From: Elusimicrobiota bacterium
Lineage (GTDB): Bacteria > Elusimicrobiota > Elusimicrobia > UBA1565
DNA: 64,000 nucleotides
Direction: 5' to 3'
Assembly (NCBI GenBank): GCA_043827405.1
Contig: JBDRPD010000003.1
Location: forward strand, 1-64,000
Each line of letters starts with the position of its first letter. Within the stretch, counting starts at the first letter, position 1. Positions 22,959 to 36,705 of this stretch are shown piece by piece. A program made the translations under genes and the position numbers. The notes below the pieces were generated by a model. It was not told where the DNA came from, did not search any database, and saw only the letters and a list, made by a program, of their open reading frames with translations.

Positions 22959-24653
22959 TCAGTTGAAGTGCGGGTGCTTGAGATAGGGGAGCTTTACGGG
23001 CTTCTTGTCGGTTCGCTTCAGCTCCATCTCGGAAACCAGGATCGAGGGATGTATGATCGAGGCTTGTGTCTGGCCGCGCGCGAGCGCGAAAGGGCCCAGC
23101 TGATAGAAGTTGTGCACGTGCCGCCGGCTGCTGACGGCGACGATGTCGCGCAGGGCGCGCAGCGTCACGCCCGAGAACTTCGCGTTGCGCACCAAAGTCT
23201 CCTCGCCCGATTCGGCGTCGACCCGGTAGAGCATGATCGGAGGGGCTAACAGTTCGCCCGCTTCCCGTCCTTCCTCCATCACCAGGCGCCGTACGATATA
23301 GGCGTGATCAAGGCCGAAGTCGCGCGCCCGCGCCAGGAGATCCTGCTTTATTTCTTCCATAGAGGAGGTCTTCTCCGCCCAGACGATCATGTTCGAGATA
23401 TGGGCCGTGGGAATTTCCCATAGGGCGCCGCGGGAGTGGCCGTTGGAGCGAAGGCTCTTCTTGGTCGGGGCGCGGCTTGTCGGCAGGTCCTTGAGGATGC
23501 CCCGCTCGATGAGCTGAACGCGTTCGGCCGGGATGCCCTCGTCGTCTACCGCGTAGTGGCCGATAAGGGGGACGCCCTCGAAGGCCTCGAGGCTCGGATC
23601 GTCCTCAACGCTGATAAGCGGGGAGATCACCCGGAGGCCCAGGCGTTCGGTCAGCTCGCCCTTATGGAACTTCTCGCGTGCGCTCTCGTCCTCCAGCCAA
23701 AGCTCGCGCGGAAAAGAAACGTTGCGGGCAAGCAGCTGGTTGAAGAACTCGCCGGCCGCCTGGTCTTCGAATAGGACCGGGCCGATATAATCTTCGGCAA
23801 AGAGCGGGGCCTTGGTCAGCGCCGTCAGGCCGCGCGCGAGCTGCAAGGCTTCCGCTTCGAGCAGGGAATACGGAGGCAGGTCGTCGGCCCGGCGCCGGAT
23901 GAAGCGGCGGTAGTCCGACAGCCCCATGCCGTCGACCGCCTGGGCGTTCGCGGTGATATAGATCTCATAGTCATCGGCCGGTTTGCTGCTGCGCCGGCCC
24001 TCGCTGTCGGCGAGGTAAACCGTGCGGTCGGTCCAGAATAGGGAGGCGTCCGAGCTCTCAATGGCGGGATAGTCCTTGAATACCGCCGAGACCTTGCTCA
24101 TGCGTGTTTCCCACAGCTCGCGCCGCAGCTCCGGCCGCGCCGCGCCGCGCTGCGAGCTCTGCGCGGGGTCGCGGGTAAGGTCGGGGATTTCATCGCGGAT
24201 CATCCGGCTCTGCTTGTAGGCCTTCTTATGCGAGAAGCGCTGCAGGGCGTGCTTGTAGGCATCGTCGGTTAAACGCCAGAGGTCGAAGCGCAGGGCGTCG
24301 TAATCGTCCTCGACGATGAGCGGCTGCGTCATGGTGTCGTAGTTCCAGTAGTCCCTGCCGACATAATGGGTATTGTCGAATTCGGCGCTGCCGACGCGGA
24401 CGTCGACCTTGACGTTGCGGTAGAGTGAGACGTTGGAGCCCTTCAGGGCGCCGAACGCGCCGCGGATTTCCAGGCGGCGGTCCTCCTCGACCGTATAGGC
24501 GGCGAAATAGGGCGGCGCGAGCTGCTCCATGCGCAGGCGGCTGGTCGTGCGGCCCAGCTCATCGTTGAGCGCCCGCATGAGCGTGCCGGTTTCGGCGCGG
24601 ACGCCGAGGGCCGTCGCGGTTACCAGCACCAGCGCGGCGCCCCACCGGTTCAT
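22959..24653 (-). CDS. PmbA/TldE-like partner subunit with signal peptide
   Basis: Paralogous to the upstream TldD (YIGPVL, YAVDDEG, SNGHSRG, ISNMIV); lacks HExxxH; N-terminal signal peptide. Confidence 0.82.
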   Translation of the reverse strand: MNRWGAALVLVTATALGVRAETGTLMRALNDELGRTTSRLRMEQLAPPYFAAYTVEEDRRLEIRGAFGALKGSNVSLYRNVKVDVRVGSAEFDNTHYVGRDYWNYDTMTQPLIVEDDYDALRFDLWRLTDDAYKHALQRFSHKKAYKQSRMIRDEIPDLTRDPAQSSQRGAARPELRRELWETRMSKVSAVFKDYPAIESSDASLFWTDRTVYLADSEGRRSSKPADDYEIYITANAQAVDGMGLSDYRRFIRRRADDLPPYSLLEAEALQLARGLTALTKAPLFAEDYIGPVLFEDQAAGEFFNQLLARNVSFPRELWLEDESAREKFHKGELTERLGLRVISPLISVEDDPSLEAFEGVPLIGHYAVDDEGIPAERVQLIERGILKDLPTSRAPTKKSLRSNGHSRGALWEIPTAHISNMIVWAEKTSSMEEIKQDLLARARDFGLDHAYIVRRLVMEEGREAGELLAPPIMLYRVDAESGEETLVRNAKFSGVTLRALRDIVAVSSRRHVHNFYQLGPFALARGQTQASIIHPSILVSEMELKRTDKKPVKLPYLKHPHFN

Positions 24654-26359
24654 GGCGCCGTCCTCCCGTCGTGATGGGGCGAGGGGAGGATGGGCGGCCG
24701 CGCGGAGTTCTTCAAGTTCTTCTCCACTTCAACCTCGGCGATCAGCAGGCTCGGCGCCACCCCCGATACCGGGACCCAGCCGGACTCCGCGCCGCAGGTC
24801 CCGTTGAAGACGGCATAGTCGTCGGCCGCCGCCAGAATCTTGGCGAAGGAGTTGAGCGGCGTGCCCACGATGTCGGCGCCGCGCACGGCTTCGTCCGGTC
24901 TTCCATCGGGGTAGACGCGATAGACGAGCTTCGGCAGGACCTTGAAGGATTGCGCGCCGGAGCGCCCGGTGTTGGTGAAGCCGCCGCCGATATCCTCAAA
25001 AATCAGGCCGTAGGGCTTGCCTTGCCGCTTGATCTCCTCGATCAGCATTTCGCGCAGGCGCGTGTAGGTGACGGTCTTGGACGCGTGCACCCGGGTATTG
25101 CCCATGCGGGCGGTCACTTCCTGTCCCTCGCCGCGCCGTCCGTGGCCGTTGGAGTTCGCGAAGCCCTTGATCGGCGAGCGCGACAGGAGGAAGCCCTTGA
25201 GGACGCCGTCCTTGACCAAAGTGACCTCACGGGCTTCGACGCCTTCGTCGTCGTACCGGTAGAAGCCGCGCAGGCTTTGGCCCGCGAAGCGCTCGAGCGT
25301 CGCGTCGTCGTAGACGCTGATGAAGTCCGCCGTGATGGGCTGGCCTAGTTTTTTGGCGAAAGTCTGTCCTTCGTCCTCAAGCTTTTGCCGGTGGCCCTCC
25401 AGCCGGTGGCCGAGTATCTCATGGAAGAATACGGCCGCCGCCCGGTTGCGGATAATGGCCGGCCCCGTATAGGGCTGGACGATGGGCGCCCGGTAGAGGG
25501 CCGCGAGCTCGGCGATGGAGTCCTCGATGTCGCGCAGTATCTTGTCGTCGGACGGCAGGTCGCGGACGCGGACGGCATCGTAGTTGCGGAAGCGGTCGAG
25601 GTCCATGCCGTCTTCAGTCCGGGCCAGGAGCGTATAGGTCAGGCGGATATAGCTGTTTCCGGTGACGACCTCGGTTCCCTCCGAATTGACGATGTAGCGG
25701 TTCTCGGTGCGCACGGAGAAATGGACCCCGGAGTGGATGAGAAAATCGTGCTTTTTGAACGCGGCGGACAGCCGGCGCAGCCGGCTGCGCCACTCTTCCT
25801 TATCGATGAGGGGCATATCGGTCACGTCGTAATGGCGCGCGGGCTCTTCGCGAGAGAAGTCGTCGGACGGGTCTTCCTCCTCCGCGGTTACGGTTTTATT
25901 GGTCCGCACCTTCAGATAGCGGTTCTGCGCGGTCTTGTAGGCGAGGTCGGTGTGCATCCAGATGCCCGCTCTGAGAGATGCCGGATCATCCTCGACCGGG
26001 AGCGAGGTAACGGCGTTTCCCGCGTCTTCGCGGAAGGCGTTGTTCCCTTTGAACTGGTGGGTGCTGTCGAGCGTATAATCGCCCACGCGCATGTCCACAT
26101 CCAGGTGGCGGGAATGCCGTTCGTTCTCGCTGCGTACGGCGCCGAGAAAAGCCGCCAGGTCATAGGTGCGGGTATCGCGCGCCTCGTAGCCCATATAGTA
26201 GAGCGGCGCCGTTTCGGCGCCGCGCAGGACAGGGAAGGAGCGCGCCAGCTCATCTTTGAGCGCGCGCAGCAGCACGTCTTTCTTGGCTGAAGCGGCGGCG
26301 GCCGGTGAGCCGGCGGCCAGCAGCAGCGCGAGGATTACATAGTTGGCGCGGCGCGTCAT
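24650..26359 (-). CDS. TldD-family metalloprotease with signal peptide
   Basis: FFHEILGHRLE zinc motif, YDDEG, SNGHGR, ARMGNT, GTCGAESG.VPVS; signal peptide. Confidence 0.9.
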   Translation of the reverse strand: MTRRANYVILALLLAAGSPAAAASAKKDVLLRALKDELARSFPVLRGAETAPLYYMGYEARDTRTYDLAAFLGAVRSENERHSRHLDVDMRVGDYTLDSTHQFKGNNAFREDAGNAVTSLPVEDDPASLRAGIWMHTDLAYKTAQNRYLKVRTNKTVTAEEEDPSDDFSREEPARHYDVTDMPLIDKEEWRSRLRRLSAAFKKHDFLIHSGVHFSVRTENRYIVNSEGTEVVTGNSYIRLTYTLLARTEDGMDLDRFRNYDAVRVRDLPSDDKILRDIEDSIAELAALYRAPIVQPYTGPAIIRNRAAAVFFHEILGHRLEGHRQKLEDEGQTFAKKLGQPITADFISVYDDATLERFAGQSLRGFYRYDDEGVEAREVTLVKDGVLKGFLLSRSPIKGFANSNGHGRRGEGQEVTARMGNTRVHASKTVTYTRLREMLIEEIKRQGKPYGLIFEDIGGGFTNTGRSGAQSFKVLPKLVYRVYPDGRPDEAVRGADIVGTPLNSFAKILAAADDYAVFNGTCGAESGWVPVSGVAPSLLIAEVEVEKNLKNSARPPILPSPHHDGRTAP

Positions 26360-26366
26360 ATCGGAC

Positions 26367-26395
26367 AGCTTAACCTAACTGAATACAGGCGTCAA
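26367..26395 (-). promoter_or_regulatory. Putative sigma70 promoter of the tldD operon
   Basis: On the minus strand TTGACG-17 nt-TAAGCT, 7 nt before the ATG. Confidence 0.55.
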
Positions 26396-26434
26396 CATAT
26401 AATCCGTTCGCGCGACAGGATCATGGTTGGGCCG

Positions 26435-28198
26435 TCAATTCTGGATTGCGGGCCGGTCGGCGGCTTCGGCCAGCGGGTCCTTGAGCACGGCGCGCACGGC
26501 AGTCCCCGTCTCCGCCTGCAGGGCGCGCCCGGCCAGCCCCTCGGCTTCGAGCAGCGAGACGGCGCGGACGGCTTCCCGGACTTCGAGGATCTTGCCGGGG
26601 ACGACGCTCAGGCTGCGCACTCCGAGTCCCAGCAGCAGCTTGGTGCATCTCGGGTCGGCGGCCATCTCCCCGCAGACGGAGGCGTCCTTGCCGCACTTTT
26701 TGGCCGCCGCCGTCACTTGGCGGAGCGCTTCCAGGACCGATGGATGCAGCGAGTCATAGTAGGAAGCCATGTCCGGGCTGGTGCGGTCCGCGGTCAGCAG
26801 GTACTGAATGAGATCGTTGGTGCCGATCGCCAAAAAGTCGGCCGCCGCGGTGATCTTGTCGATGGTGATGACCGCGGAAGGGACCTCGATCATCGCCCCG
26901 ACGGGGATTCCCTTGGCAAAACGGCGATTTTCCGCCCGCAAGGCCGTCTCCGCCGTCCGGATGAGCCGCTTGGCCTCGGCCACGTCTCCGGCGTCTACCA
27001 CCATCGGCAGGAGGATTTTTACTGCGCCGGTCATCCCCGCGCGCAGGATGGCCTTGAGCTGGACCTGCAGGATCTCAGGGTACTTCAGCATCAGGCGGAT
27101 GCCGCGCAGGGTTAGGGCCGAGCTGGGACCGGCCGGCAGCGGGAAATACGGCAGGATCTTGTCGCTGCCCAGATCCAGCACGCGAATGGTCACCGGCGCG
27201 GGCTTCATCGCCGCGACGAACTCCTTGTAGAAGCGGAACTGCTCTTCCTCGGTCGGGAAGCTCTGCTGGCCCATGAAGAGAAACTCCGTGCGGCACAGGC
27301 CGATGCCGTCAGCGCCCAGGCCGCGGGCGGAGCGCGCGTCGTCCGGATTCGCCACGTTCGCGGTCAGCGCGATGCGCGCGCCGTCCTGCGTGACGGTGAG
27401 GAGGTCGGAGAGCTCTTCGAGGTCCTCCCGGCGCGACTCCAGCTCCGTCTCGATGCGTTCGTAGCGGCGCAGCAGGGACGGCCCCGGATCGAGGTAGACT
27501 TCGCCTCTCTTTCCGTCGACGAGCAGCGTCTGCCCGGCCCGGATGCCGGCGAGGGCTCCCGTCACGCCCGCGGCGTACGGCACGTTCAGGGAGCGCGCGA
27601 TGATGGCGGTGTGGGAGGTCCGGCCGCCCTTCTCGGTTACGATGCCGCGGATGCCCTTGAGCTGCATGTGCGCCGTTACCGACGGCAGCAGCTCCTCGGC
27701 GACGATGACCGAGTCCGGCGGCACGAGGATGTCCTCGCCGGAATGCCGCCGCATGAGCACGGAGAGCACGCGGCGGCCGATATCTCTCACGTCGGCGGCG
27801 CGTTCCTGGATGTAGGGGTCCGGCAGCGCGGCGAGCATCTGCGCCGCCCGGCCGATGACGTCTGAAACCGCGGCTTCGATGTTGAGCTTGTTGTGGGTGA
27901 CCGCGTTGAACACGTCCTTGAGCAGCAGCGGATCCTTCAGGACCACCAGCTGGGCGCCGAAGATCTCGGCCTCGTCGGTCCCCAGCTTCTCGCGCACGGA
28001 ATCGCGCAGCGCCGCGATGTCGTCCGCGGCGGTCTTCAGCGCGGCGTCGAACTTGGCGAGCTCCGGCGCGATCTCTCCGGGGAGGATCTCCCGGCGGGGA
28101 GCGACCAGGTGGCTGCTGCTGAGAAACAGATACGCCGTTCCATGCCCGATCCCGGACGAAACCCCCAAGCCTTTCAGTAGTTTTCTTTGCCGGCCCAT
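26435..28198 (-). CDS. ptsI: Phosphoenolpyruvate-protein phosphotransferase (PTS enzyme I)
   Basis: GGRTSHTAI (phospho-His), GIGLCRTEFLF, IRVLDLGSDK, MIEVP, IGTNDLIQY, VCGEMA. Start chosen at 28198 after GGGAG. Confidence 0.93.
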   Translation of the reverse strand: MGRQRKLLKGLGVSSGIGHGTAYLFLSSSHLVAPRREILPGEIAPELAKFDAALKTAADDIAALRDSVREKLGTDEAEIFGAQLVVLKDPLLLKDVFNAVTHNKLNIEAAVSDVIGRAAQMLAALPDPYIQERAADVRDIGRRVLSVLMRRHSGEDILVPPDSVIVAEELLPSVTAHMQLKGIRGIVTEKGGRTSHTAIIARSLNVPYAAGVTGALAGIRAGQTLLVDGKRGEVYLDPGPSLLRRYERIETELESRREDLEELSDLLTVTQDGARIALTANVANPDDARSARGLGADGIGLCRTEFLFMGQQSFPTEEEQFRFYKEFVAAMKPAPVTIRVLDLGSDKILPYFPLPAGPSSALTLRGIRLMLKYPEILQVQLKAILRAGMTGAVKILLPMVVDAGDVAEAKRLIRTAETALRAENRRFAKGIPVGAMIEVPSAVITIDKITAAADFLAIGTNDLIQYLLTADRTSPDMASYYDSLHPSVLEALRQVTAAAKKCGKDASVCGEMAADPRCTKLLLGLGVRSLSVVPGKILEVREAVRAVSLLEAEGLAGRALQAETGTAVRAVLKDPLAEAADRPAIQN

Positions 28199-28223
28199 AT
28201 GCGCTCCCGGAAGCGATTCTAGC

Positions 28224-31200
28224 CTAATTGCCGGCCGCGCGGCCATATGCCCGACGGTCCCCAACCCACGCCCCGAAGGCGTAGACGGTCGGTATCAGGA
28301 ACAGGGAGACCACCGCGGTAAAGAGCAGCCCCCAGCCGAAGGTCAGGGCGACATGCTCGAGGAAGGGCTCGCGGCCGCCGATGCCGTAGCCCAGCGGCGC
28401 GACGCCGAAGAAAGTGGTTACGCTGGTCAGGATGATCGGCCGCAGGCGCTGGCGGCCGGCTTCGACCAGCCGCTCCGGCAGCGTCAGCTCGGGACGCTCC
28501 TCGGCCAGGCGCAGGATGGCCTCCACCAGCAGAATCGAGTTGTTGACGACCACCCCCATGAGTCCCGCCAGGCCGATAAGAACCAGCATCGACAGCGGCA
28601 GGCCGTGCAGCAGTAAAGTGAGAAAGACGCCGATGAAGGCGAAGGGGATGATGGACATAATGACGACGGGCAGCAGGAGCGAGCCCATCAAGGTCGCCAG
28701 CAAGGTGTAGATCACGATGCAGGCGATCGCCATCGCCCGCCGCAGCGAGGCCACCGACTCGATGCGGTCCTGCTCCTCGCCGACGAACTCCCAGCGCACG
28801 TCGGGGTTCTGCCGCGTCAGTTCGTCGAGTACCTTGGCGAGCGCCACCGAGACTTCGCTCGAGGACGTCGCGTCCCGGTCGACGTCGGCGATCACGGTGA
28901 TGGTGCGCTTGCCTTCGGAATGCGGGATGGCGAAATAGCCGGAGCTTTTTGTGCGCTTGATCAGCTGCGACAGCGGCACCATCCGTCCCCGGGGGGTGGT
29001 GATCCGGATCTGTTCCAGCGTGTCTTTGGAGCCGCGGGCCGCCTCCGGCAGCTTGACCAGGACTTCGATGTCCTCATCGACGTCGGCCCGCTGGATCTCG
29101 GTGGCGATCGCGCCGTCGTAGGCCGACCGCACCACCATCGCTACCGTGGACGGCGGAACGCCGGCGCGCGCTATCGCTTCCATATCCACCGTCAGCAGGA
29201 TCTCCTCCTTGCCGGGCGTGAAATCGTCTTTGACTCCGAACACTCCTTTCTGTCCGCGCAGGAAGTCCTGGGCTTGGCGGGAAAGCGCGGAGAGGGTCTC
29301 GAAGTTGTCGCCGATAAGCCGCGCCTCGACGGCCTTGCCCTGGGGCGGGCCCGCCTTGCGCTGGGTGATCTCGAGCTTCACCACGCCGAGCTCGCCCGCG
29401 GTCTTCTCCAGCTGCGGGCGAATATCCTTTAGGATATCATTGCCGTCGCGTCGCGGCTTGCCGCTGCGGTCCAAAACGATGCGCGACTGCGCGAAGTGGG
29501 TGCCGCGCTGCTTGCTGTGTTCGTCGCCGCTGACGCCGATCTCGGTGATGATCGACTCGACCTCGCTCGGCGGCAGCGCCGCGAGGATTTTTTCGAGCTC
29601 GGCCGAGACGGCGGACGTCCTCTCCAGGCTGGTCCCCATCGGGAGCTCCAGGGAGACAAAGAACTCGTCGACCGCGACCGGAAACATGTGGAAGCGTAAA
29701 AACGCCTTGGAGACGCCGAGCGAGACCAGCAGCATGAGCACGAAGAAGGCGAAGCTTTTCCCCGGATTCGCTACGCAGCGGCGGAGCGGGGGTTGGTAGA
29801 GACGGTCGAGAAACACCATCAGCCGGGTCCCCCGCTCGCGAAAGCGCGTCATAAAGGCCGGAAAGCGGATGCGATCCGCGAACAGCACTAGATGGCTGGG
29901 CAGGATAAAGATGCACTCCAACAGGTCCACCGCGAGGGTCGCCACCACCACCACCGGGAACTGGCGCAGGAACTTGCCCATGATGCCCGAGACGTAGGCG
30001 AGCGGGCTGAAGGCGATGATGGTGGTGAGCACCGCGACCGTGATCGGCAGCGCCATCTGTGAGGTGCCGACGATGGCGGCTTTTTCCGGGGATAAGCCCT
30101 CCTCGCGCTTCTTCTCGTAGAATTCGGAGACCACCACGCCGTCGTCGACCAGCATGCCCGAGACCAGGATGAAGGAGAACATGGACAGCAGGTTGATCGT
30201 ATAGCCGAGCATGTGGATGACGATGAGCCCTCCGAGGAAGGCGATCGGAATCGCCAGCGTCGTGAATACGGCGCTGACGGGGGAGAGGAAAAACACCAGG
30301 CTGATCAGAACGAGGAGGATCCCTTGGCTGCCGTTTTTCAGCAGGACGTCGAGGCGCCGCTTGATGTAGAAGGTCACGTCGTCGGAGTAGGAGAAGATCA
30401 CGTTCGGGTAGAGCGCGCGGTAGCGGTCGACGAGCGGCCGAATTTTGTCGACGATGTCGAGCGTGTCGCCTGCCGGCTTCTTGAAGACGGTGATGCTGAT
30501 CGATTTGGTGCCGTTGACCCGGGTGAAGACCTTCTCGCGTTCGAAGGTGTCTTTGACCTCGGCCACGTCGCGGATGCGCAGCTGCTCGCCCTCGACGTTG
30601 GAGCGCACCACCACGCCGCGCACGTCCTCGGCGGTCTGCAGCCGTCCCATGGTGCGGACCAGAACCTCCTTGCCGTCGATGACCATGCGTCCGCCGGGAG
30701 AGGTGTGGTTCGAGCGGGCGGTGGCCTCGATAAGGTCGTTGAGCGACAGATGCAGCCCGTCGAGCTTGGCCTGATCCGCCTCGATCCATATCTGCTGCTT
30801 GCGGTAGCCGCCCTTGGCGACCTTATTGACCCCGTCGAGCTCGAGCAGGACGTCCTCGAGCCGGCGCGCGACCACGCGCAGCTCGCTTTCCGGAGCCCCC
30901 GAGAGATCGATGTTGATCACCGGCCGGTTGGACCCCATCTCCTGGACGATGGGCTCATCGCCGTCTTCCGGGAGCTCGGCGCCGCGCACGCGCTCGACCT
31001 CGTTCTCGATATCCTTGACGGTCTTGCGTTTGGTCGGATGATCGGGGTCGAGCCGGATCAGGATCACCGACATCCCCTCGACCGACCAGGACTCCATGCG
31101 GTCGATGCCGTCGATCCCTTTGACGGCCCGTTCGAGGGGGACGGTGACCAGCTGCTCGACCTCCTCCGGCGCCGCGCCGCGAAACGGCGTAGTTATGAGC

Positions 31201-31382
31201 ATGATGTCGAATTCGATCTGCGGGAAGGCCTCCTTGGTGATGGTGAACGCCAGCACCGTCCCCACCAGCAGCACGAAAAAGGCGACCAGGTTGGTGAACA
31301 CGTGCTGGCGGGCGAAGAACCGGAACAGCCCGAGCTCGCGAGGGTCGCGCGCTTCCGGTTCCTTCTCCGGCGCGTGCTTCAT
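28224..31382 (-). CDS. RND efflux transporter permease subunit (AcrB family)
   Basis: About 1050 aa; PEEVEQLVTVPLE, GMLVDDGVVV, RLRPIILTSVTT; ATGA overlap with the TolC-fusion stop. Confidence 0.93.
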   Translation of the reverse strand: MKHAPEKEPEARDPRELGLFRFFARQHVFTNLVAFFVLLVGTVLAFTITKEAFPQIEFDIMLITTPFRGAAPEEVEQLVTVPLERAVKGIDGIDRMESWSVEGMSVILIRLDPDHPTKRKTVKDIENEVERVRGAELPEDGDEPIVQEMGSNRPVINIDLSGAPESELRVVARRLEDVLLELDGVNKVAKGGYRKQQIWIEADQAKLDGLHLSLNDLIEATARSNHTSPGGRMVIDGKEVLVRTMGRLQTAEDVRGVVVRSNVEGEQLRIRDVAEVKDTFEREKVFTRVNGTKSISITVFKKPAGDTLDIVDKIRPLVDRYRALYPNVIFSYSDDVTFYIKRRLDVLLKNGSQGILLVLISLVFFLSPVSAVFTTLAIPIAFLGGLIVIHMLGYTINLLSMFSFILVSGMLVDDGVVVSEFYEKKREEGLSPEKAAIVGTSQMALPITVAVLTTIIAFSPLAYVSGIMGKFLRQFPVVVVATLAVDLLECIFILPSHLVLFADRIRFPAFMTRFRERGTRLMVFLDRLYQPPLRRCVANPGKSFAFFVLMLLVSLGVSKAFLRFHMFPVAVDEFFVSLELPMGTSLERTSAVSAELEKILAALPPSEVESIITEIGVSGDEHSKQRGTHFAQSRIVLDRSGKPRRDGNDILKDIRPQLEKTAGELGVVKLEITQRKAGPPQGKAVEARLIGDNFETLSALSRQAQDFLRGQKGVFGVKDDFTPGKEEILLTVDMEAIARAGVPPSTVAMVVRSAYDGAIATEIQRADVDEDIEVLVKLPEAARGSKDTLEQIRITTPRGRMVPLSQLIKRTKSSGYFAIPHSEGKRTITVIADVDRDATSSSEVSVALAKVLDELTRQNPDVRWEFVGEEQDRIESVASLRRAMAIACIVIYTLLATLMGSLLLPVVIMSIIPFAFIGVFLTLLLHGLPLSMLVLIGLAGLMGVVVNNSILLVEAILRLAEERPELTLPERLVEAGRQRLRPIILTSVTTFFGVAPLGYGIGGREPFLEHVALTFGWGLLFTAVVSLFLIPTVYAFGAWVGDRRAYGRAAGN

Positions 31383-33316
31383 GGCCGGTCTCCGAGGCCG
31401 AGCCACTTGAGCAGGCCGCCCACTGCGGCTTGGTGCGCCGCCTCCGCTATCTCTCCGTCCGCCGCGGCACGCAGGCGGGCGCTGCGGGCGGCGCGAGCGG
31501 TGTCGGATGCCTGCAGGCGGTCGCGGCTGGTAATGCGCGCCTGCCGGTATTTATTTCTGGCGATATCCAGCGCTTCCAGCTGCATGTTTTCAAGCCGTTT
31601 GGTTAACTCGACCCGTTCGATCGCCAATCGCAAGCGGGCCAGGGAGATGCGCACGTCGCGTCCGATCCTTAACCGCAGCGTATGGGTCTGTGCTTCCGAT
31701 ATTAGACGGGAACTGGCGGCGGCCAGCCGCTCCCCCGCGGCGGCGCGGCCGCCGAAGACATAGGACAAGTTAAGGCCGACTCTCCAGGTGCGAAAACCGG
31801 CGCGGTTGAGTTGGTGCAGGCTCTCTTCGTTGCGGTCCTTTAGGCCCGACCACCCGAGGCTCCCGGAAAGGTCCAAAGACGGCAGGCCGAGTCCGGATAG
31901 AGATTCGATGTGCAGACGGTCGCGCTGCGCCCGCAGTTCGCTCGCTTGCAGGTCGGGGCGTTCACGCAGGGCGTGCTCTAGGGAGGCCTGCTCCTGTGGG
32001 GCCGGGCCGGGAAAGAAGGGCTTCTGAAGCTCGCCGTCCGGCAATGGGGCGGCCATGAGGAGTCTTAGTTCCTCTCCCCGCTCGAGGATTAGTTCATCGG
32101 CCTGCAGAACTTCGAGATCCTTGGACAGCAGCGATGTTTCAGCCCGCAATAGATCGTCTTTTTCCGCTTCGTAGCGCTGGGCAAGCTTTTTTGTCGTGTC
32201 GAGGAATTCGCGCGCGTCCTCCCGGGAACCGCTGAGAACCTTTTTGTTCTCGTGGCTGAGCCAGAGCTCCGTATAAGCGGTTGCGACCCGTTGGGCGAGC
32301 AGTTCAGAGGCGCGGTCGAGATCCGCCCGGGCCGCGCGCACGTCGATAGCCGCTTCCCGCAGCGCGCTGCGTTCGGGGCGGCCGATAAAGCCTTTGAGCA
32401 GGGATTGCGTTACGGATAGATCAAGCTTGGATCTCGTGCGCGGATTGAGGGTGAAGGTGGAGCTGACGTCGTCGATCTCTTTGGCCAGCGAGGAGTCGAG
32501 CGCGAGGCCGGTGCCGGTGGCGAAGCGCTTGGCCAGCCCGATGCCGGCGCTGTCGGTGATGGTGCGCGGGGTTTGGAAAAACACGGCGGGCGGCGTTTTG
32601 GCATCGAGGCGTTGGATGGCGGCGCTGATCGACGTGTCGTAAGCGCCGAGCAGCGCCAGTTGCCGGGCCAGCGCCGCCTGATGCGCGGCGCGGACGGGGG
32701 CAAGTTCGGGATTGTTTTTCAGCGCGCTGTGCACCGCGGTCAGCACCGGAAAGGGGGGGCGGTGTACGCTGGGGACCGACAAGGCGTCCGCGGTGCCGGG
32801 AATCGCCAGCAGCAGCGCGCCGAGCAGGGGCAGCAGCTTGGCCCGGATATTCGCCATGGCGGAGCGCATCGTTTTCCTTTCCGCGCCGGAGACGCCGGCG
32901 TAGATGGTCTTGAGCAGCTTGATAATGCCGGGCCAGAAGGCGCGTATTTTTTTGCGCCCGGCCGGCGTGATCTCGATCAGGGTTATCCGGCGGTCTGCGC
33001 GGGTGCGCAGACGGCGTACCAGTCCGGCCTTCTCCAGCGTATCGGTCAAGCCGGTCACGTTGGCCTGGGAGACCAGCAGCTGCATGCTGACCGCGCTCAT
33101 CGGCAGCGGTCTCTCCTGGCCGTCGAGCAGGAACAGGATGCCCATGGCCGGCGGCGTCAGGCCATGCGGCCGGAGCTGCTTGGAGAGGGTGCGAAAGAGC
33201 ATGTCGAAGGTGCGGATGATGCCGATATGCGTCTCGATGAGTTCGGGATCGAATCCGGGATAGTTCTCCGCCATGTGGGCGAAGCGCTCGCGCATGGGAT
33301 CTTTCGGCTGCGGCAT
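31379..33316 (-). CDS. In-frame fusion: MarR winged-helix regulator + signal peptide + TolC-family outer-membrane protein
   Basis: aa ~25-160 MarR (GLT, SQANVTGLTDTLEKAGLVRR, DRRITLIEITPAG); aa 161-178 LLPLLGALLLAIPGTADA; aa 179-645 TolC-like (ALKNNPEL, LSVTQSLLKG, ALRERPDL, LPSLDL, WRVGLNLSY). No intervening stop. Confidence 0.85.
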   Translation of the reverse strand: MPQPKDPMRERFAHMAENYPGFDPELIETHIGIIRTFDMLFRTLSKQLRPHGLTPPAMGILFLLDGQERPLPMSAVSMQLLVSQANVTGLTDTLEKAGLVRRLRTRADRRITLIEITPAGRKKIRAFWPGIIKLLKTIYAGVSGAERKTMRSAMANIRAKLLPLLGALLLAIPGTADALSVPSVHRPPFPVLTAVHSALKNNPELAPVRAAHQAALARQLALLGAYDTSISAAIQRLDAKTPPAVFFQTPRTITDSAGIGLAKRFATGTGLALDSSLAKEIDDVSSTFTLNPRTRSKLDLSVTQSLLKGFIGRPERSALREAAIDVRAARADLDRASELLAQRVATAYTELWLSHENKKVLSGSREDAREFLDTTKKLAQRYEAEKDDLLRAETSLLSKDLEVLQADELILERGEELRLLMAAPLPDGELQKPFFPGPAPQEQASLEHALRERPDLQASELRAQRDRLHIESLSGLGLPSLDLSGSLGWSGLKDRNEESLHQLNRAGFRTWRVGLNLSYVFGGRAAAGERLAAASSRLISEAQTHTLRLRIGRDVRISLARLRLAIERVELTKRLENMQLEALDIARNKYRQARITSRDRLQASDTARAARSARLRAAADGEIAEAAHQAAVGGLLKWLGLGDRP

Positions 33317-33321
33317 GCCCT

Positions 33322-33350
33322 AGGATAATACTTAAGGACTTAACTATCAA
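33322..33350 (-). promoter_or_regulatory. sigma70 promoter of marR-tolC with an overlapping inverted-repeat operator
   Basis: TTGATA-17 nt-TATCCT then 5 nt to the ATG; inverted repeat ATACTTAAG-GA-CTTAACTAT at 33328-33347. Confidence 0.7.
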
Positions 33351-33483: not shown

Positions 33484-36400
33484 ATGAAACATCTACGCAC
33501 AGCGCTTACCGTCTTCATTTCCGTCAGCCTGATCACTTTGTCGCCCGGACTCGGCGCCTATCGCGCCTGTGCCAGCATGATCGGCGCGGCGACGGCGGTC
33601 AAAGGTTCCGCCGCCGGCGTCAACGGCGCGGTCGGCGCGGCCGTCGGCAATCCCGCTCTCATCCGCTCCCTGAGCGTGACTCCCGTCAACCTGAACCTCA
33701 ACTCCGGCGTTCTTCCCGGTATGAGTTCGCTGCCGGGTTCCGTTATCGCGCCGCATGCGGGTGTCCGGCTTGCGCCCAGCCTGATGGTTCAGACGCAGAT
33801 TTCAGGCGCGGCGGCGGCGCTTCCGCTCAAGGCGGCGCTTTCCGTCAAGACGAGCCGTGCGCCGCCGGCGGCAAAAAAGACGCAGTCTCTCCTCAAGAGC
33901 CTCAGCCTTGCGCTGCCCAAGTTCGGCGAGATGTCCGGCGCCGAGGCCAAGTCCTCCGCCCAGACCGACTTCCTGAGCCGTATCGGCAGCTATAAGTCCC
34001 GCGGCGAGTCCGCCGCGGTCGCGCCCAAGGCCTCGGTCTTTCAGAGCCTGCGGCGTGGAATGCGGCTGAGCGCCGCCAAGAAGTCCTCCAAGAAAGAGGA
34101 TATGCCGGACTACGGGCGCGATGATGATCGCAGTTCGGAACCGGACTATAATGATCTGGACGAGCTGGGCAATGAACGCCGCCGGCAGGACCCCGGTCCG
34201 GACGATGGCTACGACGAGTTCGGCGGCGACGGCGGCCGCGGCAACAGCGATCTTTTCGGCTTCATGCCCTTGGTGTTCGCGGGCTCGAGCCTGTTTATCG
34301 CGCCGCTCTTGGGCGCGCTTTCGCTCCCGGTGATGATCGGCACCTATCTCGCCGTCGTCCTGCCGTCTTTGGTGCTCCATGAGATGGGCCATGCCTGGGC
34401 GGCCGACAAGCTCGGCGACCCCAGCGCCCGCCTCGCCGGACGCATGAGCTTCAGCCCCCGGAACCTCTGGAATCACCTGAATATGCCGCTGAGCTTCAAC
34501 CTTTTCGGCCGGCAAATCTCCATCCCGCTGGGCATGAGCTTCGTGCTGCCGCTTGGGATGATGACGATCTCAATGCTGACTGTGGGCGTGCCGATCCTGT
34601 TCGGCGGCGCGCGGCCGGTTCAGGTCAATTCCGGCAATCTCGCGAGCCCCGCGCAGAACCGGACGGCCGCCAAGGGCATGGGACTTGTCGCCTTGGCCGG
34701 CCCGGCGGTTAACTTCGGCATCGCCGCGCTCGCCGGCCTGACGCATTTCGGTCTCATGGCCGCGGGCGTGGGCGGCGCGGTGCTGCCGGTTCTGGCGGCT
34801 TCGGTCTTCCTTAATGTGCTGCTCGGAGTCTTCAACCTGCTGCCGTTCGCGCCGCTTGACGGGCATCATGTCGGGCGCTCGTTTCTCGCCGACACCCTCG
34901 GCCGGCCGGACTGGGCCGAGAAGGCTTACGGCAGCGCCGAAGGCTATATGAGTCCGGCCGCCCGCGCGGTCAATATCTACGGGCTGATCGGAACGGTTCT
35001 GTTCATGCTGGGGCCGGTGCTGGGCGCGGTGCATTTGATCTCGAGCGTCTTCCTCGCCGGCTCATCGTGGCTGGTGAGCTCGGGCGCGCTGGCGGCGTCG
35101 GGCGTTCTCCCGGCGGTCGGCGCGCTGGGTCTCATGGTCGGCCAAATCCTCGGCGGCGGCAGCACCATGGGCGGCAATTCGGACGGCGCCAAGTCGGAGC
35201 CGGCCGTTGAGATTCCGGACGCCCGCGAGCTTATCGTACGCTTTGACGGCGCGAAGTCGAAGCTTTCGGCGGACCATCATCTCAGCCTGGTGGACGTCGG
35301 CGCCCAGGGCGGCATGCGGCTCTATCAGGCGACCGTGCAGGGGATGATGGCGCAGCTGCACCTGTCGGGTCTGGACATGAGCCTGCTCCACCGCTTCGGC
35401 GCCACTCCGATCGCCACCTATAAAAGGATAAACGCGGCGACCCTGCGCATGCCGGCCTCGCAGAAGGACGCCATGAAGCAGGCGCTCACAGCGCGCGGCT
35501 TCAAGGTCTACGAGAACGAGCGGCGCGAGATCGTGCGCCCGATCGAGGACGATCCGAACGTGCAGATGCCGCAGGCCGCGCCGCAGCGGGGAGCGGTTTC
35601 TATGAAGGAGACGCTCGAAATTTCCACTATGGACAAGGTCCATGAAGCGGCACGCCAGCGGTGGGGTTCGCCGCAGCGCAGCGACTGGCGCGCGCGGCTG
35701 CTGAACTTCCTGCTCACCAAGGTGCTGCGCGGCAGCATCGCGCAGCCCAATATCGGCGTCATCGATACCGGGGTGGAGAAAGACCATCCGCTGATCGCCC
35801 CCGGCCTTAAAGCCGCCAAGGACGTCGATCCCAACGGCAGCGGCGCCGACAGGAACGGGCATGGGACCTGGGTGACGTCTATGGTGTTCTGGTTCGCCCC
35901 CTGGCTCAAGAATATCACGCATTATAAAATCTTCGGCGATAACGGCGGGGCGACCCTCGACGACGTGCTCAAGGGTCTGACCATGGCCGGCAACGACAAG
36001 AACATCGTCATCTCCAACTCCTGGGGCTCCGACGACGGCGACCCGAACAGCCCGGACTCCATGCTGGTCAAGAAGTTGGCGGAAGAGGGGCATATCATGG
36101 TATTCGCCGCCGGGAACGCCGGCTATCGGGGCGCCAATACCATCGGCTCTCCCGCGATATCGCATTACGTGGACGCCAAGACCGGCGCGCCCCGGGTGAT
36201 CGCGATCGCCTCTACCGACCGCAATAAGGCGGTTTCGAGCTTCTCCTCCAAGGGGCCGGGCAGCCGCAAGACGCGCAATATCCCGGATTATCCGCGCAAA
36301 CCCAACGCCGCCGAGCAGGGCGACAATACCGAGGGCGCCTGGCTGGGCGGCAGGACCCGGGCCATTTCCGGAACCTCGATGTCGACCCCGAAGTTCGCGG

Positions 36401-36705
36401 GGACGATTGCCATGCTGGCGCAGCTCTTCGGCGTGACCGAGGTCGGCGAGGACCTCGACCGGATCGTCAACGCCGTTATGGGCACTCTCGTGAACCCGAA
36501 AAATGAGACGCCGACGGCCATCGGGGACGGCTTCAGCGCCGCTTACGCCGCCTATGAGCGGCTTAATGCGACCGGCTTCATGCCGGTTAAGCGCGGGCTG
36601 GTCCGGCGCCTGCTTATTTGGCTGCTGGACCGCGCTCAGGTCGGCGGCGAGGCGCCAAAAGCGCCGCCCGCTCCCGCGGCAGACGAAAGAAACGTAGAAA
36701 AATAA
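33484..36705 (+). CDS. Membrane protein fusing an M50 site-2 metalloprotease to an S8 subtilase
   Basis: GAGGAG SD before ATG 33484; signal-like N-terminus; HEMGH (34378) and NLLPFAPLDG (34834); S8 triad IDTG (35764), NGHGT (35860), GTSMS (36370); oxyanion motif FAAGN. Confidence 0.9.
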   Translation: MKHLRTALTVFISVSLITLSPGLGAYRACASMIGAATAVKGSAAGVNGAVGAAVGNPALIRSLSVTPVNLNLNSGVLPGMSSLPGSVIAPHAGVRLAPSLMVQTQISGAAAALPLKAALSVKTSRAPPAAKKTQSLLKSLSLALPKFGEMSGAEAKSSAQTDFLSRIGSYKSRGESAAVAPKASVFQSLRRGMRLSAAKKSSKKEDMPDYGRDDDRSSEPDYNDLDELGNERRRQDPGPDDGYDEFGGDGGRGNSDLFGFMPLVFAGSSLFIAPLLGALSLPVMIGTYLAVVLPSLVLHEMGHAWAADKLGDPSARLAGRMSFSPRNLWNHLNMPLSFNLFGRQISIPLGMSFVLPLGMMTISMLTVGVPILFGGARPVQVNSGNLASPAQNRTAAKGMGLVALAGPAVNFGIAALAGLTHFGLMAAGVGGAVLPVLAASVFLNVLLGVFNLLPFAPLDGHHVGRSFLADTLGRPDWAEKAYGSAEGYMSPAARAVNIYGLIGTVLFMLGPVLGAVHLISSVFLAGSSWLVSSGALAASGVLPAVGALGLMVGQILGGGSTMGGNSDGAKSEPAVEIPDARELIVRFDGAKSKLSADHHLSLVDVGAQGGMRLYQATVQGMMAQLHLSGLDMSLLHRFGATPIATYKRINAATLRMPASQKDAMKQALTARGFKVYENERREIVRPIEDDPNVQMPQAAPQRGAVSMKETLEISTMDKVHEAARQRWGSPQRSDWRARLLNFLLTKVLRGSIAQPNIGVIDTGVEKDHPLIAPGLKAAKDVDPNGSGADRNGHGTWVTSMVFWFAPWLKNITHYKIFGDNGGATLDDVLKGLTMAGNDKNIVISNSWGSDDGDPNSPDSMLVKKLAEEGHIMVFAAGNAGYRGANTIGSPAISHYVDAKTGAPRVIAIASTDRNKAVSSFSSKGPGSRKTRNIPDYPRKPNAAEQGDNTEGAWLGGRTRAISGTSMSTPKFAGTIAMLAQLFGVTEVGEDLDRIVNAVMGTLVNPKNETPTAIGDGFSAAYAAYERLNATGFMPVKRGLVRRLLIWLLDRAQVGGEAPKAPPAPAADERNVEK

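Follow-up and report, generated by a model that had tools for sequence, protein, structure and literature searches.

We analyzed a stretch of 64,000 nucleotides from an Elusimicrobiota bacterium (assembly GCA_043827405.1, contig JBDRPD010000003.1, positions 1 to 64,000; hereafter the window) and confirmed that it carries a 645-aa open reading frame (ORF) in which a MarR-family regulator is followed by a signal-peptide-like segment (residues 161-178) and a TolC-fold domain. Our best reading, to which we assign a probability of about one half, is that the chain would be exported by the Sec pathway and cut by signal peptidase I after Ala178, and that an RseP-type protease would then release the MarR part to repress its own operon. 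A previous sequence-only reading of the window had described a single uninterrupted ORF with an A-x-A site after residue 178 and a TolC of about 467 aa. This description holds: there is no internal stop, the site reads A176-D177-A178 and the mature part comprises 467 aa.

Both domains were recognized by Pfam, MarR/MarR_2 at residues 51-111 (E 7e-11, above the cut-off) and OEP with an E value of 4e-27 and both repeats detected. The MarR part matched 57 sequences in the PDB and, among the matches listed, all were MarR-type regulators. Profile matches to solved MarR proteins extended to positions 160-165 and thus covered the full fold including the C-terminal dimerisation helix. An AlphaFold2 model of the mature channel alone (110 sequences) reached a pLDDT of 95.8 and displayed the TolC fold, matching E. 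coli TolC (1EK9) with a Foldseek E value of 5e-17, a Z score of 28.9 and a root-mean-square deviation of 5.4 over 392 residues. The junction runs in the order ...GAERKTMRSAMANIRAK, then LLPLLGALLLAI, then PGTADA, then LS..., and the basic n-region of the signal-like segment is supplied by the last MarR helix. The N-terminal signal peptide expected of a TolC-type outer membrane factor is missing, as the signal-like segment starts at residue 161. That the last MarR helix doubles as the n-region had already been proposed, and it agrees with the AlphaFold2 model of the full-length protein (9 sequences), in which residues 144-171 form one helix continuing from MarR into the hydrophobic stretch; this model is weak, with a mean pLDDT of 69.7, values below 50 for residues 163-185 and no barrel.

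The fusion is not an artefact, because its relatives are fused and free of stops and a contig from a separate study crosses the junction without a gap; an assembly error or a private read-through mutation was thereby ruled out. The sequence-only reading had called for reads to be inspected for a stop or indel near the junction. Run X1 contains the entire window with no differences, and may be its source, hence not independent. In X2, which stems from a separate study, a single contig spans positions 31463-33048 across the junction with 13 substitutions and no gaps. We translated 24 substitutions that X2 shows in the ORF and set aside three more of its rows, two of which come from a short divergent contig. 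This yielded eight amino acid changes, seven of which fall within the first 156 residues, and no stops. The two runs containing more than half of the words of the window are groundwater metagenomes, and the runs listed as containing it did not include an RNA data set.

Among the ten proteins returned by a protein search, seven others combined MarR and OEP at 50-64% identity, one (P0006) was partial, beginning just upstream of the junction and crossing it, and one was a distant stand-alone TolC; the named relatives are Elusimicrobiota. Among 16 further genomes of this family, four (three in genus g3 and one in g4) contain an orthologue, at 44-53% identity. Three of the orthologues are complete and lack stops; the remaining one is divided between two contigs with its junction intact. 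These relatives thus lack the stop between the domains that had been named as the mark of an artefact, and across the Elusimicrobiota clade all 11 rows are fused, at 44-64% identity. Mean pairwise identity of nine full-length members was 58% for the winged helix, 52% for MarR overall and 54% for the channel. An apparent second fusion in genome G022 (open frame 587) was rejected, as its locus L013 has a separate MarR ORF with its own stop. At positions 747-2259 of the same locus, the TolC-type gene after MarR is spread over two reading frames, reflecting a frameshift or an assembly error. None of the other TolC-type genes inspected in the source genome was fused to a regulator, and its other MarR-type frames measure 206-278 aa.

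By simple metrics the junction carries the features of a Sec/signal peptidase I substrate, namely a basic n-region, an h-region and small residues at -3/-1. In 27 fused sequences the most hydrophobic 10-mer begins 48-66 residues past the DRR motif. Compared with the N-termini of 203 stand-alone TolC proteins, these junctions had nearly the same medians for KD10 (2.68 vs 2.75), KD19 (1.73 vs 1.75), uncharged length (19 vs 18) and preceding net charge (+2 in both). A small-x-small motif was present in 89% of the fused junctions, 66% of the stand-alone N-termini and 44% of random mature 15-mers. The KD19 of the junction in the 645-aa protein, 1.78, is exceeded by 10 of the 12 strongest RND helices. 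By these metrics the junction resembles an ordinary cleavable signal peptide more than a membrane anchor. Within the clade, conservation is low in the c-region and linker (27%), where small residues at -3/-1 are still kept, and high in the h-region (63%). The best 12-mer of the signal region was 62% identical in the clade (51 pairs, mature identity 54%) and 39-44% identical in other fusions, compared with 33% and 29% in two sets of stand-alone TolC proteins (120 and 54 pairs, mature identity 47%); the region compared takes in as many as six MarR helix residues, and this inflates the fused values. An h-region about twice as conserved as stand-alone TolC signals points to an additional constraint, which may reflect anchoring, a protease site or its place at the end of the MarR fold.

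How might such a chain be processed? A leaderless mRNA would be translated into the MarR-signal-TolC chain, the MarR part would fold in the cytoplasm, and the internal hydrophobic segment would bring the chain to Sec, probably co-translationally, so that Sec threads the TolC part into the periplasm. After cleavage behind Ala178 by signal peptidase I, TolC would continue to the outer membrane. The remaining stub of residues 1-178 would amount to a remnant signal peptide with a 160-residue head, which an RseP-type protease could cut inside the h-region. The freed MarR dimer would occupy a palindrome over its own promoter and keep marR-tolC-RND repressed until a ligand lifts repression, and one repressor monomer would be produced per channel monomer. 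There are precedents for individual steps: SecA targets RodZ co-translationally through a segment distant from its N-terminus, signal peptidase sites follow the -3/-1 rule, and RseP degrades signal peptides including that of TolC (PMC9360617). An N-terminal MBP tag had little effect on RseP cleavage (PMC4597795), and LtaS is cleaved by SpsB (PMC12260438). The source genome encodes three signal peptidase I matches and a full-length RseP-like M50 protease. The proposal of a signal peptidase I cut followed by proteolytic release, made in the sequence-only reading, thus gains a signal-like junction and the presence of both enzymes, with cleavage itself still putative. Cutting of the precursor, which this reading shares with a repressor that stays in the membrane, appears probable to us.

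The MarR part is probably an active repressor. Taken alone, the predicted promoter is a 9/12 match and thus at chance level; the pattern TTGA(C/T)A-17-TAnnnT occurs once per locus, 5-7 nt ahead of the MarR ATG, at 6 of 6 clade loci, which indicates a leaderless mRNA. The palindrome over this promoter was the top site in a leave-one-out test at all six loci, with 8-16 of its 18 positions self-complementary. It is the sole strong site in the genome (30.9 bits, the next reaching 16.5, with a matrix trained partly on this very site). A wider MarR regulon was ruled out, as the genome lacks a second strong operator. The palindrome was also the top site upstream of L077, a separate fusion with a different TolC (18.0 bits), and at two split genes that belong to this MarR subfamily (L078, 16.8 bits; L079, 11.2 bits), and it scored at most 9.8 at 13 other MarR or TetR loci. 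It hence tracks the MarR subfamily, fused or split alike, which argues for activity of the repressor, and the conserved footprint suggests that MarR binds DNA there.

Coordinates of the fused ORF, its parts and associated elements in the window
Feature	Position	Strand	Remarks
Fused ORF, MarR - signal peptide - TolC	31379..33316	-	645 aa, single stop-free frame, kept in relatives
MarR-family domain, residues 1-160	32837..33316	-	winged helix 51-111, DRR wing motif 108-110
h-region LLPLLGALLLAI, residues 161-172	32801..32836	-	
c-region PGTADA, residues 173-178	32783..32800	-	predicted signal peptidase I site after Ala178 (A176-D177-A178), putative cleavage
Mature TolC-family outer-membrane factor, residues 179-645 (467 aa)	31379..32782	-	six predicted beta strands per protomer
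Possible internal start: AAGGA, 5 nt, ATG (M150)	32867..32879	-	second ATG at M154; pairing energy -5.9 kcal/mol
Sigma-70-type promoter TTGATA-17-TATCCT	33322..33350	-	5 nt ahead of ATG, leaderless transcript predicted
Predicted MarR operator, 18-bp inverted repeat, TTAAG-N2-CTTAA core	33329..33346	.	covers -35 box and spacer
RND (AcrB-family) permease, 1052 aa	28224..31382	-	start overlaps fusion stop (ATGA)

The same architecture exists beyond the clade. A profile search over 1.84 billion representatives was evaluated through its best 150 hits, 30 of which were scanned for length or match pattern, and these 30 included 10 MarR+OEP proteins from outside the clade. Two more searches added the fusions P0163 and P0281-P0283; fused rows made up 3 of the 120 listed in the first, Omnitrophota-centred search and 5 of 41 in the second. 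One fused protein is named as PVC group and its unfused neighbours as Omnitrophota. Fused proteins occur also among TolC sequences of the Omnitrophota type. The nearest clusters in a search of the ESM Atlas, limited to clusters of at least 50, did not include a MarR+OEP cluster. We built a FastTree phylogeny of 154 TolC domains, 26 of them fused (the partial P0009 was excluded, and the unfused rows are a subset). The Elusimicrobiota clade was entirely fused (11/11) with support of 100 and had stand-alone sisters. The fused label changed 13 times on this tree, 11 of the changes being forced by well-supported branches; P0055 sits on a long branch, losses may account for some of the changes, and unfused rows that lack DNA could stem from truncated gene calls. 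MarR-signal-TolC fusions accordingly appear on at least seven separate groups of the TolC tree.

In seven distinct split MarR/TolC loci, the two genes overlap by ATGA in five, overlap more extensively in one and share a frame across a short interval in one, suggesting that a small indel would be enough for a fusion. At the locus L032/L079, MarR and TolC share one frame, separated by one TGA and four codons, and carry the same operator type. Its TolC is sister to that of the fused P0112/P0161, and it may represent a pre-fusion state. In P0094 a different domain, a phosphonate-binding-like periplasmic one, is fused before OEP. Repeated origins from ATGA-overlapping pairs suit a near-neutral fusion and the coupling of repressor supply to channel export put forward in the sequence-only reading equally well, and a near-neutral fusion event after which the second start was lost would account for the data as well as a regulatory benefit would.

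Several points weigh against release of MarR by sequential proteolysis. The export route, both cuts, DNA binding and the ligand response are steps that we infer, and the signal call comes from simple metrics. Some type II segments, such as that of YoaJ, are left uncut by RseP (PMC4597795). In the source genome and two relatives, a start-type codon with a moderate Shine-Dalgarno score lies 11 codons before the h-region. That this region is so strongly conserved would suit tethering as well as a protease site. It is conceivable, and we take it as a genuine if minor possibility, that signal peptidase frees TolC and that MarR(1-178) represses from the inner membrane without release, much like ToxR/CadC. 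The sequence-only reading, in which an intramembrane protease releases MarR, overlooked this option. In MarR dimers the last helices are positioned away from the DNA-binding face, which would permit such an arrangement, and an h-region 12-mer at 62% identity, vs 29-33% for ordinary TolC signal peptides, favors it too, as does the wide occurrence of membrane-bound regulators (PMC10269533). However, the hydrophobic stretch resembles a signal peptide and is weaker than most true transmembrane helices, and E. coli RseP takes remnant signal peptides, TolC's among them, as substrates (PMC9360617). The in-frame ATG at M150, preceded by AAGGA, was likewise missed before. TolC might mostly arise from this start in the last MarR helix, with a signal peptide of 29 residues, while the full-length chain mainly supplies MarR. 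The position 11 codons ahead of the h-region is ATG in the genome under study (pairing energy -5.9 kcal/mol) and TTG in L003 (-4.0) and L023 (-5.2), and Met occurs at or near this place in P0002, P0003, P0006 and some other fusions, e.g. P0032 and P0144. However, 23% of 358 internal ATGs score at least as low as -5 kcal/mol, and in strain X2 a change of AGGA to AAGA weakens the site to -3.5. The position belongs to a hydrophobic helix, so that Met or Leu is expected there anyway. A usable start is absent from three of six loci: L024 has no ATG, GTG or TTG among the 25 codons preceding the h-region, L022 has a GTG without a Shine-Dalgarno-like site, and L002 has only a CTG there plus an ATG within the h-region. 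Because MarR lacks its own stop codon, it would be made solely within the long chain, which has to be handled regardless. Restart may contribute in the source genome but cannot be the rule, and we judge it unlikely as the main source of TolC.

An indel accident between overlapping genes may well explain the origin of the fusion. As a full account, in which export persists and a weakened or idle MarR is mostly degraded, it strikes us as very unlikely. The ATGA overlap at five of seven split loci, the scatter of fusions over the tree (13 changes among 26 fused rows) and their rarity in the Omnitrophota-centred search (3 of 120 listed rows) speak for it, but it leaves retention unexplained, as MarR and palindrome are conserved across 44-64% divergence. 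We give hardly any weight to an intact chain that spans the envelope, in which MarR stays cytoplasmic and a TolC anchored at the inner membrane takes the place of an adaptor. The operon indeed lacks an adaptor gene, but the predicted cut lies only about 3-25 residues ahead of the first TolC helix, and the N-terminus of TolC-family proteins lies near the outer membrane. The -3/-1 motif is kept, and adaptor-less TolC/RND pairs exist without any fusion in the same genome.

Downstream of the fusion lies the gene of an RND permease, an arrangement also found in L002, L003, L005, L023 and L024. There is no adaptor gene between or beside the two in the operon; four adaptor-like loci are located at other places in the genome. 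With 28224-33316 and pairs on contigs C13 and C54, the genome holds three TolC/RND pairs without an adjoining adaptor gene. The TolC barrel is built from 3 x 4 strands (PMC6194013), and the four strands per protomer expected for a 12-stranded trimer were not matched, as the one-protomer model of the mature channel (31379-32782, minus strand) contains six: 229-240, 251-264, 270-282, 293-305, 480-493 and 508-518, four of them clearly amphipathic. A trimer of such protomers would be 18-stranded, not 12-stranded. The 110 mostly unfused relatives in the alignment share the strand region, which makes six strands a likely trait of the subfamily.

On the plus strand, positions 33484-36705 encode a 1073-aa protein that joins an M50 (site-2-type, HExxH) protease domain to a subtilisin S8 domain, so that a site-1-like protease and a site-2-like one are combined in a single chain. 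We rejected it as a dedicated processing enzyme: 15 of 16 family genomes carry the gene, and the fusion occurs in only 4 of these. M50-S8 relatives occur in 31 of 41 genomes searched, and the gene shares an older block with thioredoxin, polA and a response regulator, so that no specific link to the fusion is apparent. Downstream of the RND gene (22959-28264, minus strand) are genes of a PtsI-like PEP-utilising enzyme and of a TldD/PmbA-like pair. The Tld pair comes straight after the RND gene in L021 and abuts the M50-S8 gene in L068; the efflux cassette therefore looks inserted between them.

The finding concerns uncultured groundwater bacteria in which the repressor of an efflux operon and an outer-membrane channel form one protein, joined by an export signal. 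Bacterial signal peptides are assumed to be N-terminal and to be waste after cleavage, and in this case one seems to carry an entire transcription factor as its head, in a layout that has been retained over deep divergence and has arisen several times. Such fusions offer natural substrates for asking how Sec and signal peptidase handle a signal 160 residues into a chain, whether proteins released by RseP can be functional and whether MarR can repress from the membrane. As named members are labelled only as TolC proteins, the regulator is invisible, which calls for caution among annotators. In its fullest form the idea would be that repressor-channel polyproteins evolved repeatedly and that the channel's signal peptide itself is the transcription factor of the operon, active only after Sec export, the signal peptidase cut and release by RseP. 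The operon would then read the state of its own export pathway with the conserved h-region as control element, and the channel would be a wider, adaptor-less TolC type with six strands per protomer. We put this forward as a tentative proposal with the odds well against it as a whole.

The sequence-only reading knew of no described example, and we found no description of a MarR-TolC fusion in the literature searched, which leaves out most subscription journals; the first 300,000 characters of PMC8277102 and the excerpts of PMC10269533 do not mention one. Several known systems share parts of the design. In Bacillus subtilis RsiV, signal peptidase initiates degradation and a site-2 protease follows (PMC6066255). 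RsiV resembles the fusion in its cytoplasmic regulatory head, single membrane segment, internal signal peptidase site and sequential proteolysis, but it is an anti-sigma factor destroyed on a signal, whereas both products of the fusion would work and its cut looks constitutive. RodZ and the ToxR/CadC-type regulators, whose head is a cytoplasmic helix-turn-helix domain, likewise have an internal hydrophobic segment after the cytoplasmic domain and then a periplasmic part; their segment is an uncleaved anchor and their C-terminal part is not an outer-membrane channel. The Bradyrhizobium cytochrome b-c1 precursor FbcH is split at an internal signal peptide into two inner-membrane proteins. Hepatitis C virus core-E1, a viral and eukaryotic case, releases a nucleic-acid-binding protein through a signal peptidase cut and a subsequent one by an intramembrane protease; neither system pairs a bacterial repressor with a channel. 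FbcH had no match in the literature text searched, including the excerpts of PMC7908018. With the TolC/outer membrane factor family (PF02321; 1EK9) the fusion shares the two OEP repeats and the fold, and it differs by the 160-residue cytoplasmic domain before the signal and by six predicted strands per protomer. A parallel in gene content is provided by MarR-autoregulated efflux operons such as mprA/emrR-emrAB of E. coli and mexR-mexAB-oprM of P. aeruginosa, which also combine a MarR-family repressor, an operator over the promoter and efflux genes downstream. Among the MarR-type NCBIfam families, MprA matches the fusion best, with a score below the cut-off, and split marR/tolC pairs exist in the same gene order. 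Unlike in those operons, the repressor lacks a stop and is joined to the channel precursor, and the operon has no adaptor. The parts are ordinary members of their families; the novelty is the repressor-channel layout.

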